Origin: Candidatus Melainabacteria bacterium
GTDB lineage: Bacteria > Cyanobacteriota > Vampirovibrionia > LMEP-6097
Assembly: GCA_005110385.1 (NCBI GenBank)
Contig: DUDT01000002.1
Span: forward strand, 27,854-91,853
DNA: 64,000 nt
Direction: 5' to 3'
Part shown: positions 57,639 to 64,000 of the stretch, in pieces
Position numbering within the stretch: the stretch's first letter is position 1
Layout: the number at the start of each line of letters is the position of its first letter
Translations under genes and position numbers: made by a program
Notes under the pieces: generated by a model
The model's database searches: none
What the model was told of the DNA's origin: nothing
What the model saw: the letters and a program-made list of their open reading frames with translations, nothing else

Positions 57639-59090
57639 TTACATATTAGTCGCTGTAGAAATTTCTGAATTAGTTGTCTGTGAATTAGTTGTCGCAGCTA
57701 ATTCAGAAATTAAAAACCTTAAACTTGCTGAGTCCTTAAGCTTATAATTTATCCCTTCACCGGAAACAGCGTTTCCGACTAAAACGAAATTACTCTGATG
57801 ATTAACATTATCCATAGCTCTAGCAGCTTCGTATTCTACAGGCTGATCCCCAAAAATATAAATATCTTGTTCCTTCGCTTTACCCTTTTCATGGTTCTCC
57901 ATAAGAATTTGAGCTAATGGTTTAAATTTATCTGCATTAAAGCTTTGATGGCGCAATTCTATAAAACGACCGTATTGTTTTACTTTCCAGTCACGGTTAG
58001 CAGAAGTAAAATTCTCAAGATCCTTGATTAGAGACTCTTTTAACCCAGTATAATCATTAGCTTTAATACCAAAGCAGACTGAACCAGGAAGGGTAAATAT
58101 ATCCGTAATTGGAGACTCTGCTGCTTGTTTATTAGATGATTTCTGAGAATTAGAAGTTGTATAATTCAATCTTATATATTTCTCTATAGATGCTTTCATG
58201 CTCGCTGTCGCCCGAGATAAGCTTAAATTTGCATCCTGCACAATTTTCTCTGTTGCACCTCTTTCATTAATCTTCACACGCCCATTTTCACAGAAAACTG
58301 GAATCCCAGCCCCTGGAACATTTGATTTTCTTATTTCGCTTGCTGGACGAGTAGTAACGAAATATATTTGATAACGAGTATCTTTTTTAAGTTCCTTTAA
58401 GTCTGCTATTAGCTTGTCATCTAAATTAGGGGTGATATGCCCTGCGCTACCAGCCTCCGATGGGCGCAAAGTGCCGTCTATGTCAAAAATCAATATCTTA
58501 GGCTTAGCTGAATTTAATCTATCAAAGAGAATCTCCGTCTCATTAGCTCTTTCTTGATTACTAATCGCTTTACTAATTTCTGGTAATTTCTGTAATGCCC
58601 AGCCCTGAGCAGTATTAAACAATTTACTTGCAATATTCTTAACCTCCTCTAATACTGGTGAAATAAAAAACTTACTTCGCGATAAAGGTTGAAAACGACT
58701 AGTAATCGACTCCCTTGAGTCAATTACAGAATCTAAATGCTTAGCTAAATTTAGAGGATTTTGAATATTTTCCTTAGACGCTTGGTAATCTTGATCAGCA
58801 GCGGCTTCAAAAGTCTTCTGCAAATCTTCATCACTTGAATAAGCAGCATCTTTCATCTGGTGACTGTGCAGTAGGTTTATAAAGTCTACTGAATTATCGG
58901 TGGAAAGCTTATGTTTACGACCTTTTACAGCAAGACCGATGAATGTATCTAAATAATGAAAAAGTGCTTTTAACTGTTTATCTTTGTCTGTAACCGCACC
59001 CATTGCATGCGTGAAAACTGATGAATTTAATGCTGATAGCGCCAAAGACATACTTAAAATAATAGCAAGAAAGTTGTTATCAAAAATCAA
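57639..59090 (-). CDS. Secreted HAD-superfamily-like hydrolase (hypothetical)
   Basis: Signal peptide 'FLAIILSMSLALSALNSSVFTHA', a HAD motif I-like 'ILIFDIDGTL' and a late 'IYIFGDQ' (motif IV-like). Confidence 0.3.
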   Translation of the reverse strand: MIFDNNFLAIILSMSLALSALNSSVFTHAMGAVTDKDKQLKALFHYLDTFIGLAVKGRKHKLSTDNSVDFINLLHSHQMKDAAYSSDEDLQKTFEAAADQDYQASKENIQNPLNLAKHLDSVIDSRESITSRFQPLSRSKFFISPVLEEVKNIASKLFNTAQGWALQKLPEISKAISNQERANETEILFDRLNSAKPKILIFDIDGTLRPSEAGSAGHITPNLDDKLIADLKELKKDTRYQIYFVTTRPASEIRKSNVPGAGIPVFCENGRVKINERGATEKIVQDANLSLSRATASMKASIEKYIRLNYTTSNSQKSSNKQAAESPITDIFTLPGSVCFGIKANDYTGLKESLIKDLENFTSANRDWKVKQYGRFIELRHQSFNADKFKPLAQILMENHEKGKAKEQDIYIFGDQPVEYEAARAMDNVNHQSNFVLVGNAVSGEGINYKLKDSASLRFLISELAATTNSQTTNSEISTATNM

Positions 59091-59160
59091 GATGATTGAG
59101 ATTTAATCTCCAGATAAAGCCCGACTTCAACAGTTAACAATAATTGATATTATCTAATAT

Positions 59161-60204
59161 ATGTCCTTCTTTAAAAAGATTTTAAGTAAGATACCTTTTC
59201 TAAAAGGCAATGAGAAAACTGAAAGCAAAGAACAACTCAATTTAGCTGAAAGCGGAATCTTAGCTAATATATCGGAAACAGATTCAATACCAAGTAATTC
59301 TTTAAATGCAGTACTAGAGAGAGTTTTAATCAAAAAAGCAGAGCTAGATGATCTAGAAGAAGAACTTATTCGCTCTGATTTAGGTGTAGATTTAGCTATG
59401 GATTTCACCGAGCTTTTACGTAAAGAGCTTAAAGCCCAAAAAGAAATTTATAAAGATGACTTACAAGACAAGCTCAAAGAATTTCTGCTAGGAGCTTTTA
59501 CGGAAGTTAAAATCCATAGAAATAGAGCACAGCTAAGCCCAGTTAGCGAAAAATTAGACCCCTTTAAATTTAGCTGTCCTGAAAATGTACTTACTGTAGT
59601 TATGATACTTGGCATTAATGGTGTCGGAAAAACTACTAGCATAGCTAAACTTGCCTATAAATACAGAAACTTAGAGAATAAAAGAGTATTAATCGCAGCT
59701 GGAGATACTTTCAGGGCAGCAGCAGAAGACCAACTGCGTACTTGGGCAGAGAGAACTGGTGCTGATCTAATCGAGATGCCGCATGGCTCTAAATCTAGTG
59801 CTGTCGTCTATAAAGCGATAGAGAAGGCTAAGAATGAAAATTATGATCTTGTACTTATAGATACCGCTGGTAGATTACATAACAAGAAAAATTTAATGGA
59901 AGAATTATCTAAAATTCAAGAAGTAGTGAAAAAAAATCTAAATGGTCAAGCTTACCATTTGGAAACCATGCTGGTTTTAGATGCCTCTATGGGGCAGAAT
60001 TCTCTGATACAAGCTCAAACTTTTAATGAGCTTTGTGAAGTGGACTCTATCATTCTGACTAAGTTTGATGGCTCTTCTAAGGCTGGGACTGTCTTTTCTA
60101 TCGCCCATAAACTTAAAATCCCAGTCAAGTTCTTAGGTGTGGGAGAAAAGATGGAAGATCTAGAAGAGTTTAGTCCAGAGGCTTTTACTAAGAAGTATTT
60201 TTAG
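59161..60204 (+). CDS. ftsY: Signal recognition particle receptor FtsY
   Basis: 'ILGINGVGKTTSIAKLA', 'DTAGR' and an SRP-GTPase NG domain. Confidence 0.85.
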   Translation: MSFFKKILSKIPFLKGNEKTESKEQLNLAESGILANISETDSIPSNSLNAVLERVLIKKAELDDLEEELIRSDLGVDLAMDFTELLRKELKAQKEIYKDDLQDKLKEFLLGAFTEVKIHRNRAQLSPVSEKLDPFKFSCPENVLTVVMILGINGVGKTTSIAKLAYKYRNLENKRVLIAAGDTFRAAAEDQLRTWAERTGADLIEMPHGSKSSAVVYKAIEKAKNENYDLVLIDTAGRLHNKKNLMEELSKIQEVVKKNLNGQAYHLETMLVLDASMGQNSLIQAQTFNELCEVDSIILTKFDGSSKAGTVFSIAHKLKIPVKFLGVGEKMEDLEEFSPEAFTKKYF

Positions 60205-60238
60205 AATTCTTAAACGACGAGAAGCAGTTAATAAGACC

Positions 60239-60337
60239 TATACCCAACAGGGTATAAAGTAGGCTAAAGTAGTGATATTTATACCCTATCAGGTGTAAAT
60301 ATCACTTAAGTGAAGGGATTATACCCAATGTGGTATA
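60239..60337. promoter_or_regulatory. Array of three TATACC-N6-GGTATA palindromic operators (plus a fourth half-site near 60372) upstream of the hipB-like gene, spaced about 40 bp apart
   Basis: 'tatacccaacagggtata', 'tataccctatcaggtgta' and 'tatacccaatgtggtata'. Comparable to the E. coli HipB operators (TATCC-N8-GGATA). Confidence 0.55.
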
Positions 60338-60380
60338 ATTTTGCTATAAAACACTTAAATTAGACCCGAAAAGGTATAAA

Positions 60381-60587
60381 ATGCTGTTATCTATTTTCAT
60401 AAAACAAAAAAGAAAAATCGCTAAACTCACGCAAATAGAACTCGCGGAGAAAGCTGGAGTGGGCTTAAGATTTCTTAGAGATTTAGAGCAGGGTAAAGAA
60501 ACTTTAAGGTTAGATAAGGTAAATCAAGTACTGAGTTTATTTGGTTATGAAATGGGACCAGTTAAGTCTCAGCTAGGTGATAGTTAG
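60381..60587 (+). CDS. hipB: XRE-family HTH protein (HipB-like)
   Basis: 'LTQIELAEKAGVGLRFLRDLEQGK' is an HTH_XRE motif. First gene of the three-gene operon. Confidence 0.55.
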   Translation: MLLSIFIKQKRKIAKLTQIELAEKAGVGLRFLRDLEQGKETLRLDKVNQVLSLFGYEMGPVKSQLGDS

Positions 60588-60915
60588 AATGAGAAAAGCT
60601 GAGGTCTTAATGCACGAGGAACTTGCAGGCTGGCTAAGTCAAGATGAGCTGGGATATCACTTTCAGTATGCAGAAGAGTACCTTAAGTCAGAAAACCCTG
60701 TACCAATAAGCTTTACACTACCGATTAAAAAAGAAGCCTTTAACAGCTCTGTGTTATTTCCTTTTTTTGATGGGTTGATACCCGAAGGTTGGCTTTTAAA
60801 TATAGCTGAAAAAAACTGGAAACTTAAGCCTAGAGATCGCATGGGCTTGTTAATGGCTTGCTGCCTGGATTGTATTGGGGCGGTGAGTATTAATCCATTA
60901 ATAGAAGAATCATGA
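60577..60915 (+). CDS. hipS: HipA N-terminal subdomain-like protein (HipS-like)
   Basis: 'LPIKKEAFNSSVLFPFFDGLIPEGW' matches the HipA_N motif (..FF.NLLPEG). Its stop overlaps the next start (ATGA). Confidence 0.55.
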   Translation: MIVRMRKAEVLMHEELAGWLSQDELGYHFQYAEEYLKSENPVPISFTLPIKKEAFNSSVLFPFFDGLIPEGWLLNIAEKNWKLKPRDRMGLLMACCLDCIGAVSINPLIEES

Positions 60916-61859
60916 GTAATCGCTGCTTATACTGCTATTTAGCTTTAGCTGACGGTGAAATTGATTTTCATCCGAGCTGTAGTAAAAAAATATTTGGAAC
61001 TGCTGTTCCGCCTCTAATGCCTTATTCAGAAGAGAATCTAGATGAACTAGCTGAGCAAATTATCCAGTCACAGACCACTGTAACTGGAGTTCAGCCGAAA
61101 CTATCTCTACATTTAGCCTCGGCAGAAAATCCAAATCAAGTCAAACGTTTTACTATAGTAGGAATGTGGGGAAATTATATTTTAAAACCAGCATCACCAC
61201 ACTATCCTGAATTAGCAGAGATAGAGGATTTGACTATGCACCTCGCTGAGATCGCTAAGATTAAAACAGTACCTCATAGCTTAATTCGCTTATCCTCAGG
61301 TAATCTTGCGTATATTACTAAAAGAATTGATAGATGGAAAGGGGGGAAGCTCCATATGGAAGATATGTGTCAGCTCACTGAAAGGCTTACAGAAGATAAA
61401 TACCAAGGTTCTTACGAGCAGATCGCTAAAGCAATTTTAAAATATTCTGTAAATCCAGGACTTGATTTAGTTAATTTCGCGGAATTGATTTTATTTTCAT
61501 TTATAACTGGAAACGCTGATATGCACCTGAAAAATTTCTCTTTAATTTACCAAAGAGATACGGGGCCTGTGTTTTCACCTGCTTATGATTTACTCTCTAC
61601 AGTCTTAGTAAATCCTAATGATGACGAAGACTTAGCTTTAACTCTTAGTGGCAAAAAGAAAAAAATTAATTGTGATGATTTTAATAAAGCTTTTAATACC
61701 ATGGGCTTAGAGGGAAAACAGCAGAAAAATATTTTTAAGAAAATGGAGAAAGCTCTACCTAAATGGTGTGAATTTATAGAGCTGAGTTTTTTAAGTAGGG
61801 AGATGAAAGGTGCTTATGTAAAGCTGTTGGAGGAGAGGTTTGGGCGTTTGGGGTGTTGA
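60912..61859 (+). CDS. hipT: HipA C-terminal-like Ser/Thr kinase (HipT-like toxin)
   Basis: 'VTGVQPKLSL' and 'GNADMHLKNFSL' are the HipA signature motifs (GVQPKFS and DDHLKNFS). Confidence 0.7.
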   Translation: MSNRCLYCYLALADGEIDFHPSCSKKIFGTAVPPLMPYSEENLDELAEQIIQSQTTVTGVQPKLSLHLASAENPNQVKRFTIVGMWGNYILKPASPHYPELAEIEDLTMHLAEIAKIKTVPHSLIRLSSGNLAYITKRIDRWKGGKLHMEDMCQLTERLTEDKYQGSYEQIAKAILKYSVNPGLDLVNFAELILFSFITGNADMHLKNFSLIYQRDTGPVFSPAYDLLSTVLVNPNDDEDLALTLSGKKKKINCDDFNKAFNTMGLEGKQQKNIFKKMEKALPKWCEFIELSFLSREMKGAYVKLLEERFGRLGC

Positions 61860-61901
61860 AGTTATAAATTCAAGCTAGGGATCAAGCTGACCTACTAGTA
61901 A

Positions 61902-61941
61902 AGAGATGCCCAAAAGCTTGAGCCTTTGGGCATCTCTTTTT
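61902..61941. terminator. Bidirectional rho-independent terminator between hipT and rpoC
   Basis: 'agagatgcccaaaagcttgagcctttgggcatctcttttt'. Confidence 0.8.
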
Positions 61942-61960
61942 AATCTTTACACTTATTAAC

Positions 61961-64000
61961 TTAAGCTACTGAAAGCCCAGCCATAAGCTGCTCTTTCTCT
62001 GGGTGAGCAGCAATAAGACTTTCTTCACTATCCACCACAGCATCAAAGCCTGAACCAGATGGGATAAGACGTCCGATAATAACGTTCTCTTTAAGACCGT
62101 GTAACCAATCCGTTTTACCTTTAATCGAAGCTTCTGCAAGAATTCTAGTAGTCTCTTGGAAAGAAGCTGCTGATATAAAGCTCTCCGTATTTAAGCTAGC
62201 CTTAGTTAAACCAAGTAGAACGTGTTTGTATTGAGCAGTAATCTTACCTTCTTCCTCAGCTGCTTTATTAATAGTTCTTACATAATTAATATCATGTAAT
62301 TCACCTTGAAGAAGCTCAGTATCACCGGGATCATCGATTCTTACTTTACGAGTCATCTGTCTAACTATAGTCTCAATGTGTTTGTTTGCAATTTCAACAC
62401 CTTGAGAGACATATACTGACTGAACTTCATCGACTAAGAACTGTTGTAAATGCTCTACACCCTTATACTCAAGAAGATCATGCGGATTAGGCTGACCATC
62501 TGTAAGAAGGTCTCCTACGTTAATCTTATCACCATCATTAACGACGATGTTCTGACCAACAGGAATAACGAACTCTTTACGCTCATCCGCAGTTTTAATA
62601 AATATAGTCTCAGCACCATCTTCATTAAGAACTTCAGCGACACCAGATACATCAGAAATAATCGCTGGCTCTTTAGGCTTTCTACCTTCAAGTAATTCTT
62701 CTACTTTCGGAAGACCCTGAACTATGTCACCAGTCTTAACTTTCTCATAAATAATAGTAGCGAGCTGATCACCCTGCTGAACTAAAGAATGGTTATCGAC
62801 GTGTAATCTAGTACCAGAGCTTACAAGGAAAGGACGCGCCTTTCTAATCACGACTGTGTTTCCTTTCACTTCCGTTACTATACCTGGCTCCTCAAGCGGC
62901 TCTGAATTACCTATCGAATCACCTTTAAGAACGTAGTCCCCTGCTTTAACTTTAGGAGCGACCTTAGAAGTAACAGTAAAACTAGAAGCATCATCTAGAA
63001 TTAGGATTCTAGATTTATCTACTTGATTTACGAAAACCTCACCAGAAGTCTGTGCAATAGACTGAACTTTTGCTACAGCTTGATTAGCTTCAACAAAGTC
63101 ACCTGGCTGAACAAGAATCTCAGTAATAGTAGATGATGTTCTCTCAGACCTTAGAATAATATTTTCTTGGAAAATAATATTTAATGTCTCAGCTTCAGTA
63201 TCGAATTCTACGATTCCCTTAGAATCTTGGTATTGATCTTCACAAGACAGTATCAAACTAGTCTTAGTGAGTGCTCCACCATTAAAGTTACGAACTTTAT
63301 CACCGTCTCTGTAATGCATTTGCGTTACAGGGTAAATATTAATCGCAGCATCAGTAGTTTCAGCGGTAAACTCGACTTCACGTGGCTTAATATCATACAG
63401 CTGAACATCTCTAAGCAGGAGCTTAGTTTCACCAGTTTCTTCATGACTAAAGAGAGTAATCATACTTGGCTTAGTAGTCTTAACCTTAGGCATAATCTCT
63501 ACACCTTCTTTAACGATGTCTCCATCAGCATACTTAAGAAGCTCTGGATCTTCTATGTCGAAAAGCTGTCCAGGAGTCACTGTTACTTCATGAATAATAT
63601 TATTTTCAATAGTAACTCTAACTATACCGTCAATATTCGCATAAACGTCTTTAACAACTTCCGTTCCAGCTTTAACGTGAGTACCAGTCTCAATTATCGC
63701 AAGACTTGCATCTTTAGAAAGAGAATGAATCTCCTCTGGAATAAAAATTACTCTTCCATGCTTAGTAACAATCTTTCTATCATCTATTTCTAGATCATCG
63801 TATCTGATTTCACCCGAGCAAGGTAAGTGTAGTGAAAGCTCGTCATCAACAAGCTCTGCTAATATCTTACCATTCTCAATGGTCTCACCATTTACCATCT
63901 TAAGAACATACTTTTCATTAGCAAGAACCCAAAGATTACCTTGTTGATTCTGCTGTAATTTAGCATTAGAAGAACCTATCGAAGCGTTAATTACATTAAG
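61961..64000 (-). CDS. rpoC: DNA-directed RNA polymerase beta' subunit, C-terminal part. The gene continues beyond the window end.
   Basis: 'GLKENVIIGRLIPSGSG' near the C-terminus. The frame remains open from 63898 to 64000. Confidence 0.85.
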   Translation of the reverse strand, partial: LNVINASIGSSNAKLQQNQQGNLWVLANEKYVLKMVNGETIENGKILAELVDDELSLHLPCSGEIRYDDLEIDDRKIVTKHGRVIFIPEEIHSLSKDASLAIIETGTHVKAGTEVVKDVYANIDGIVRVTIENNIIHEVTVTPGQLFDIEDPELLKYADGDIVKEGVEIMPKVKTTKPSMITLFSHEETGETKLLLRDVQLYDIKPREVEFTAETTDAAINIYPVTQMHYRDGDKVRNFNGGALTKTSLILSCEDQYQDSKGIVEFDTEAETLNIIFQENIILRSERTSSTITEILVQPGDFVEANQAVAKVQSIAQTSGEVFVNQVDKSRILILDDASSFTVTSKVAPKVKAGDYVLKGDSIGNSEPLEEPGIVTEVKGNTVVIRKARPFLVSSGTRLHVDNHSLVQQGDQLATIIYEKVKTGDIVQGLPKVEELLEGRKPKEPAIISDVSGVAEVLNEDGAETIFIKTADERKEFVIPVGQNIVVNDGDKINVGDLLTDGQPNPHDLLEYKGVEHLQQFLVDEVQSVYVSQGVEIANKHIETIVRQMTRKVRIDDPGDTELLQGELHDINYVRTINKAAEEEGKITAQYKHVLLGLTKASLNTESFISAASFQETTRILAEASIKGKTDWLHGLKENVIIGRLIPSGSGFDAVVDSEESLIAAHPEKEQLMAGLSVA

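Follow-up and report, generated by a model that had tools for sequence, protein, structure and literature searches.

We characterized a locus in a 64-kb stretch of DNA from a Candidatus Melainabacteria genome (64,000 nucleotides [nt] of contig DUDT01000002.1; hereafter, the window) that had been predicted, from the sequence alone, to encode a tripartite HipBST-type toxin-antitoxin operon. Coordinates are positions in the window unless another locus is named, and those of hipB, hipS, and hipT refer to the forward strand. Positions 60381 to 61859 contain three co-directional, tightly coupled open reading frames (ORFs) in the order hipB-hipS-hipT, and all three of the ORFs originally listed (60381 to 60587, 60577 to 60915, and 60912 to 61859) were recovered. 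Their assignment to an XRE-type helix-turn-helix (HTH) protein, the HipA N-terminal subdomain, and the HipA C-terminal kinase was borne out by matches to the Pfam families HTH_3 (E = 3e-8), Couple_hipA (PF13657; 1.7e-25), and HipA_C (5e-44), respectively. Thus, hipB (60381 to 60587) encodes a 68-amino-acid XRE/Cro-type HTH repressor of the Y4mF/couple_hipB family, hipS (60589 to 60915) encodes a 108-amino-acid antitoxin homolog equivalent to N-subdomain 1 of HipA, and hipT (60912 to 61859) encodes a 315-amino-acid Hip-family serine/threonine kinase, the putative toxin.

Two details of the gene calls required revision. HipS had been given 112 residues, starting from a GTG at 60577; however, the true start is almost certainly the ATG at 60589, which yields a product beginning MRKAEV, because a Shine-Dalgarno sequence (AGGTG, 60575 to 60579) precedes this ATG, the GTG falls within that Shine-Dalgarno sequence, and all homologous HipS proteins in our alignment begin with MR(K/R)A. 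Also, not all of the ORFs overlap as had been described. Because the hipB stop codon (TAG) occupies 60585 to 60587 and hipS starts at 60589, these genes are separated by 1 nt, whereas hipS and hipT do share an ATGA at 60912 to 60915 that contains the stop of the former and the start of the latter. The sequence motifs first noticed in the third ORF, GVQPKLS and DMHLKNFS, are found at HipT residues 59 to 65 and 203 to 210.

The hipS-hipT split is old

A bipartite HipBA system would encode a single HipA polypeptide of ~440 amino acids; here, there are two ORFs in different frames with a coupled stop and start. The original prediction had allowed for a frameshifted hipA as the alternative. In that case, a recent frameshift, or an error in sequencing, would have disrupted the hipA of a canonical hipBA locus, leaving two accidental ORFs of a pseudogene. 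Fused HipA-type relatives of this clade, composed of a HipS-like domain, a linker, and a kinase, do exist. An exhaustive search of 1.84 billion representative sequences returned 338 clusters at an E value of ≤1e-30, a minority of which were fused proteins of 427 to 457 amino acids. These relatives are, however, only ~44 to 52% identical to the window proteins and carry a linker of ~28 residues that is not present in the window. In one of them (P0146, 450 amino acids), window HipS aligned with residues 6 to 105 (52% identity) and HipT with residues 134 to 448 (44% identity), with the linker in between. The split therefore lies at a natural linker and is old, in agreement with the proposal that it falls at a domain boundary with coupled start and stop codons.

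Additional comparisons indicated that the two-gene arrangement is maintained. The ATGA junction and the same three ORFs recur in an independent metagenome-assembled genome (MAG) of Candidatus Caenarcaniphilales (CANHDW010000010.1; hereafter, L001). The best 120 database homologs were all HipA_C-only proteins of 306 to 329 amino acids, and four sampled homolog loci as well as one Legionella plasmid locus each comprised an HTH gene, a hipS gene encoding 102 to 109 amino acids, and hipT, with a 4-nt overlap. This overlap was also found in homologs at 72 to 76% identity. Comparison of the window with L001 yielded ratios of nonsynonymous to synonymous substitution rates (dN/dS) of 0.19 for hipB, 0.28 for hipS, and 0.14 for hipT, indicative of purifying selection on all genes, including both halves of the presumed hipA (0.14 to 0.28). 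With the same split in an independent MAG and in every sampled homolog, and with purifying selection acting on each part, we rejected a frameshifted hipA as a very improbable account of this locus.

HipB, HipS, and HipT most closely resemble HipBST proteins

HipB matched the NCBIfam model TIGR03070 (couple_hipB) with 80 bits, above the 71.65-bit cutoff, and its closest match in the Protein Data Bank (PDB) was HipB of Legionella pneumophila [HipB(Lp), PDB code 8ezt; E = 7e-6]. HipS matched TIGR03071 (3e-30) and was about equally close to three HipS proteins of solved structure, namely, HI_0666 of Haemophilus influenzae (3e-14), HipS of Escherichia coli O127:H6 (hereafter, O127; 2e-13), and HipS(Lp) (3e-13); the N terminus of HipA matched at 2e-8. 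Glu66 and Trp68 of HipS are equivalent to Glu63 and the wedge residue Trp65 of O127 HipS, which face the HipT active site, and the surrounding P-E66-G-W68 motif showed no variation in our alignment of the clade. At the wedge position, Legionella HipS has an Ile instead of a Trp.

HipT aligned with L. pneumophila HipT [HipT(Lp); PDB codes 7vkb, 8ezr, and 7wcf] over residues 44 to 313 (E = ~4e-50) and with O127 HipT at an E value of 6e-18 (~24% identity), whereas full-length HipA gave a weak match (~4e-4, to the kinase part of E. coli HipA). Residue roles were taken from structural work on HipBST proteins (eLife 2023, PMC10627512; Nat Commun 2022, PMC9325769). The Asp/His motifs whose absence would have spoken against a kinase are present on alignment, and the catalytic motif is complete (D203-x-H205-x-K207-N208), as are the Mg-binding D226 and the ATP-binding lysine K92. 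D203 corresponds to D210 of O127 HipT and D197 of HipT(Lp), and D226 corresponds to the Mg-binding D233 of O127. K63 and K92 were invariant among 42 aligned close homologs. Of the six HipT(Lp) residues at which mutation abolishes or weakens HipS binding, five are kept in the window protein (D140, R141, E150, K163, and K207), and the sixth, R154, is replaced by T160. The activation-loop region aligned to HipT(Lp) without gaps.

The Gly-rich loop of HipT (residues 55 to 65) begins T55-T56-V57-T58-G-V-Q-P-K63. Examination of this loop for autophosphorylation residues, which had been suggested as a check, revealed that Thr56-Val57-Thr58 align with Ser57-Ile58-Ser59 of O127 HipT; Thr56 also aligns with Ser54 of HipT(Lp), where the corresponding loop reads S-V-Q rather than T-V-T. 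The T-V-T loop belongs to the previously described T[IV][TP] group (PMC10627512). Across the 42 close homologs, Thr58 was invariant, whereas position 56 was T, A, V, or S. Invariance of the second site and variability of the first is the reverse of the trend described for the E. coli-type clade. By alignment, Thr58, and in this protein also Thr56, are likely autophosphorylation sites that tune the interaction with HipS.

To model HipT with AlphaFold2, we used an alignment of 88 diverse family members, which resulted in a mean predicted local distance difference test (pLDDT) score of 94.3 and a predicted template modeling score of 0.93; a model from a shallow alignment of the 42 close homologs (pLDDT of 51.5) was discarded. 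Only residues 55 to 58, in the mobile Gly-rich loop, scored below 50. Foldseek matched this model to HipT(Lp) with template modeling (TM) scores of 0.88 to 0.90 and to O127 HipT with a TM score of 0.82, whereas HipA was covered in part. Sequence, motifs, fold, and operon structure, including positive alignments to O127 HipS and HipT and to HipA, thus support the HipBST architecture that was originally proposed.

The N terminus of HipT contains a CCHC motif, C5-x2-C8...H20-x2-C23 (residues 5 to 23; window 60924 to 60983). All four positions were invariant in the 42 close homologs; across the 88 diverse members, C5 was invariant and the other three were at least 90% conserved. The motif also occurs in the fused relatives, and the region was modeled with a pLDDT of 91 to 97. 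Judging by its ligand pattern, it is presumably a small zinc-binding element. It was not found in Legionella or O127 HipT in our alignment, and zinc and cysteine ligands are unmentioned in both Legionella HipBST papers.

One Bacteroidota homolog of HipT (L086:6001-6951) has an Asn in place of the catalytic Asp (GNANMHLKNF). This was the sole case among the 42 aligned sequences and suggests that otherwise intact cassettes occasionally carry an inactivated HipT.

An operator array overlaps the putative hipB promoter

In the 176-nt spacer between ftsY and hipB, an 18/19-nt palindrome, TATACC(C)-N5/6-GGTATA(A), occurs four times and forms a predicted HipB operator array on the forward strand (60239 to 60379). 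The copies, O1 (60239 to 60257), O2 (60280 to 60298), O3 (60320 to 60338), and O4 (60361 to 60379), are spaced 41, 40, and 41 nt from start to start. With up to one mismatch, the entire window contained four such sites, all of them in the array (0.09 expected; 0/100 shuffles). The same motif lies at approximately −21, −62, and −102 relative to the hipB ATG in the Bacteroidota loci L083, L084, L086, and L087; therefore, the cassette moves together with its operators. In electrophoretic mobility shift assays, HipB(Lp) bound to three operators, each 18 nt long with inverted arms of 6 nt (Lin et al. 2023, PMC10653801), and the window likewise has several sites of this format upstream of hipB. The two sets differ in sequence (TTACYGC.ATAACAGTAA, as read in the L. 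adelaidensis locus, versus TATACC-N6-GGTATA), in number (three versus four), and in start-to-start spacing (~71 nt versus 40 to 41 nt). By analogy, we infer that HipB binds the O1 to O4 palindromes.

O3 includes a candidate extended −10 promoter element, TGGTATAAT (60331 to 60339, forward strand), which is preceded by a weak −35 region. The element is unchanged in L001 and in L081 and L082, two related loci from independent samples, and GGTATAA(T/A) is found at an equal offset in L083, L084, L086, and L087, suggesting that it functions as a promoter. O4 stops 2 nt short of the hipB ATG and spans the hipB ribosome-binding site. An Rfam scan of 59000 to 62200 gave only a sub-threshold chance match (23 bits versus a gathering score of 128 bits); thus, no known RNA accounts for the intergenic palindromes.

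O2 is nested in a longer, 36-nt palindrome at 60271 to 60306 (AGTGATATTTATACC...GGTGTAAATATCACT). This palindrome is kept in L001 and L082 with two compensatory pair changes, three G-U-type changes, and 15 predicted pairs; the extension beyond O2 is absent in the Bacteroidota homologs. In the three sequences compared, it could represent an RNA hairpin, for example, an ftsY 3′ end or a stability element, layered on the operator.

Downstream of hipT, a strong, bidirectional intrinsic terminator (61900 to 61945, forward strand) is shared with the convergent rpoC2 gene. It consists of a 15-bp stem, AAAGAGATGCCCAAA/TTTGGGCATCTCTTT, followed by TTTTAATC, and the region from 61860 to 61960 folds with a minimum free energy of −31.5 kcal/mol (z = −3.5). 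L081 and L082 have lost the terminator along with the last two codons of hipT.

The cassette was probably acquired from Bacteroidota

By its sequence, the host is a member of the Caenarcaniphilales (Melainabacteria), an uncultured, nonphotosynthetic relative of cyanobacteria. FtsY, encoded next to the operon, has 95% identity to its counterpart in a Candidatus Caenarcaniphilales MAG; the remaining matches do not exceed 47%, except for two partial ones at 53%. HipB, HipS, and HipT, in contrast, reach ~63 to 76% identity with proteins from Saprospiraceae, Chitinophagia, and other Bacteroidota. Because FtsY stays below 50% outside its own lineage (the two partial matches at 53% aside), whereas the HipBST proteins reach ~63 to 76%, these sequences indicate that the entire cassette, operators included, passed between phyla, probably from Bacteroidota. 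The cassette now matches its host in G+C content (37.1% versus 36.7%). When the window was compared with L001, the hipBST genes had a lower synonymous substitution rate (dS, 0.08 to 0.145) than the neighboring ftsY (0.30), which is compatible with later exchange among strains. Homologs of hipBST are also found on Bacteroidota plasmids, with up to 55% identity.

The operon occupies a variable slot next to ftsY

The original prediction considered the position between ftsY and rpoC to be unusual. The operon does lie between these genes, but the position is not especially unusual, as the ftsY-rpoC2 gap is variable in close relatives. The downstream neighbor does belong to the rpoC family and is, more precisely, the 3′ part of a cyanobacterial-type split rpoC2. 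An in-frame stop codon that we suspected in rpoC2 was ruled out by translation, and the frame is open to the window edge. The slot contains hipBST alone in the window, whereas in L001 it contains hipBST, an orphan ORF of 1,130 amino acids, and a CRISPR array, followed by rpoC2. An FtsY scan of metagenome contigs for an empty ftsY-rpoC2 site returned just distant relatives (≤54% identity). RpoC has come up as a candidate in HipT(Lp) phosphoproteomics (Lin et al. 2023, PMC10653801), and we considered a functional link between HipT and rpoC2; it was rejected as coincidence, since hipT and rpoC2 run toward each other and are separated by 4 kb of other DNA in L001.

The other side of ftsY was also examined. 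An ORF of 483 amino acids (57639 to 59090, reverse strand) separates an etfB-like gene from ftsY; its only match, which was haloacid-dehalogenase-like, was sub-threshold. This ORF is missing in L001, where etfB adjoins ftsY, and L081 has a 461-amino-acid gene there on the opposite strand. Together with the variable ftsY-rpoC2 gap, these differences mean that both flanks of ftsY are variable in close relatives.

In L001, the 1,130-amino-acid ORF between hipT and rpoC2 (L001:7585-11389) has RxxxxH motifs at residues 156 and 1090 in a Cas13b-like layout. Directly after it is a CRISPR array of six identical 36-nt repeats (GGTAAAACGGCACTGCAAGTGCGGTGTAGTTAGAAC) with unique spacers of 30 to 31 nt. 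The ORF had no match in Pfam, NCBIfam, PADLOC, or PDB sequences, and among 5.8 billion proteins only one other cluster (89% identical) was found. On the basis of its motif layout and the adjacent array, it is a candidate for a highly divergent, single-effector type VI system. The 64-kb window contained no copy of the repeat.

Some Bacteroidota homologs of the cassette are located among restriction and other defense genes. In L083 (L083:230-12981; GCA_038251405.1), hipBST, with a HipT that is 75% identical to that of the window, is situated inside a BREX locus, between brxC and a pglX methyltransferase gene, and is followed by an unannotated gene encoding 309 amino acids without a Pfam match. 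In L086 and L087, the cassette lies just upstream of type I restriction-modification genes.

L081 and L082 share two deletions. In hipS (L081:3243-3474; L082:2435-2666), an out-of-frame deletion of 97 nt leaves MRKAEVL followed by a stop codon; the remainder encodes a 54-amino-acid C-terminal fragment with a GTG start that lacks a good Shine-Dalgarno sequence but retains the Trp wedge. The hipT gene is open, and all catalytic residues are kept. The second deletion takes out the terminator, so that hipT abuts rpoC2, and gives HipT a different set of final residues.

DISCUSSION

Collectively, these data are best explained by a tripartite HipBST type II toxin-antitoxin operon that is complete, probably functional, and accompanied by its own regulatory region. 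It belongs to the Legionella-type subclade, reported to be widespread in the Fibrobacterota-Chlorobiota-Bacteroidota (FCB) superphylum; we estimate the probability of this reading at roughly 0.88. The sequence data show the gene order and coupling, homology, residues, fold, purifying selection, and an operator array that is conserved. We infer DNA binding by HipB, neutralization by HipS, toxicity of HipT, its target, and the biological role of the module.

The operon would work as follows. A HipB dimer would occupy the four TATACC-N6-GGTATA operators, covering the extended −10 element at O3 and the hipB leader and ribosome-binding site at O4, and so repress its own transcription. The three genes would be carried on a single mRNA, with hipS starting 1 nt after the hipB stop and hipT coupled to hipS through the ATGA. 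HipS would sit on the N-lobe of HipT and present Glu66 and Trp68 to the Gly-rich loop, holding it in a state unable to bind ATP. If HipS were lost or displaced, HipT would phosphorylate an essential cellular protein and growth would arrest. The target would most likely be found in the translation apparatus, for example, an aminoacyl-tRNA synthetase. Because of its neighborhood (a variable slot that holds a CRISPR array in L001, and BREX or type I restriction-modification genes beside homologs), the module most likely stabilizes a variable island, acts as an abortive-infection defense, or does both. A HipA-family kinase has been validated in phage defense in another system, HipAD (PMC13092281).

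Several observations weigh against parts of this reading. The deletion of hipS in L081 and L082 alongside an open hipT would be unexpected if full-length HipS were strictly needed to survive HipT. Going by the sequences, the C-terminal change may inactivate HipT in these loci, or the HipS fragment with its Trp wedge may suffice. A defense role is circumstantial, because PADLOC yielded only weak matches, to the candidate system PDC-M03, and because no HipT homolog was found in the phage genomes searched. A strict scan for sigma-70 promoters found no full −35/−10 site and no canonical −35 in the regulatory region, so the promoter call was made from the extended −10 element only. Lastly, neither TrpS nor GltX gave rescue from HipT(Lp) (Lin et al. 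2023, PMC10653801). As HipT(Lp) is the closest characterized relative, TrpS, the target of E. coli-type HipT, should not be assumed to be the target here, and it is not established for the Legionella-type clade.

One alternative, although it is unlikely, is that the operon is decaying or has been domesticated, such that HipT has lost its toxicity and the genes persist as, for example, a regulator-only or pseudokinase module. The hipS-deleted, hipT-open loci from independent samples would fit this, as would a hipT dN/dS that rises to 0.33 on the L081/L082 comparison and the L086 homolog with Asn for the catalytic Asp. The window copy, however, has three intact genes and lacks none of the catalytic or ATP-binding residues; selection between the window and L001 is purifying, and the operators and promoter are conserved. 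The second deletion in L081 and L082, moreover, alters the C terminus of HipT and may itself inactivate that copy. A still less credible alternative, that HipT is secreted and serves as an effector kinase against a eukaryotic host instead of as a bacterial toxin, follows the first proposal for Legionella Lpg2370, which was reported as a Dot/Icm substrate (Zhen et al. 2022) and survives in the RefSeq name of the L. adelaidensis homolog ("lpg2370 family Dot/Icm T4SS effector"), but translocation was subsequently found to be not above control and the protein to have a canonical toxin role (Lin et al. 2023, PMC10653801), the clade is spread among free-living Bacteroidota beside restriction and BREX genes, and both the tight coupling to HipB and HipS and the autorepression array are in keeping with a toxin-antitoxin module.

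Among known systems, L. pneumophila HipBST (Lpg2368-Lpg2369-Lpg2370; PDB codes 7vkb, 7vkc, 7wcf, 8ezr, 8ezs, and 8ezt) has the same gene order and coupled genes, supplies the best PDB matches of HipT and HipB, and shares the catalytic residues and five of six HipS contacts, but identity is just 35 to 45%, and its HipT is without the N-terminal CCHC motif that characterizes the window clade. O127 HipBST (PDB codes 7ab3, 7ab4, and 7ab5) has the same architecture and neutralization logic, with Glu63/Trp65 and Ser57/Ser59 as counterparts of E66/W68 and T56/T58. Canonical HipBA of E. coli K-12 and Shewanella oneidensis, as well as fused Bacteroidota-type HipA proteins such as P0146, share the kinase core, the catalytic motifs, and an HTH repressor that acts on several palindromic operators with an 18-bp span. 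HipS corresponds to N-subdomain 1 of HipA; the difference is that in the window this subdomain is a separate protein and the expected antitoxin, whereas HipB alone would not be expected to neutralize the toxin.

The CCHC motif, the invariant Thr58 (on which, rather than on the first phospho-site, control appears to center), the natural variants with hipS deleted and hipT intact, and the defense-slot locations, taken together, raise the idea that HipBST of Bacteroidota and Caenarcaniphilales is a functionally distinct variant, whose kinase would serve in abortive infection, have a new target or trigger, and be regulated unlike the E. coli and Legionella paradigms. We offer this as a tentative and rather doubtful proposal.

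The HipBST-Lp subclade is widespread in the FCB superphylum, according to a survey that does not mention the Melainabacteria/Caenarcaniphilales lineage (Lin et al. 2023, PMC10653801). The locus described here is a well-supported but ordinary finding, which extends the Legionella-type subclade, already known to be common in Bacteroidota, to a Melainabacteria/Caenarcaniphilales genome. What it adds are details: the operator consensus, the HipT CCHC motif, the phospho-site pattern, and the variable-slot context. The consensus TATACC-N6-GGTATA, in three or four copies ~40 nt apart over an extended −10 element, applies to a large, uncharacterized branch of the family, and neither the CCHC motif nor the reversed conservation of the phospho-sites is covered by the published E. 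coli and Legionella work. While the current understanding of HipBST is unchanged, these features are of use for annotation and for hypotheses about the target of Legionella-type HipT.

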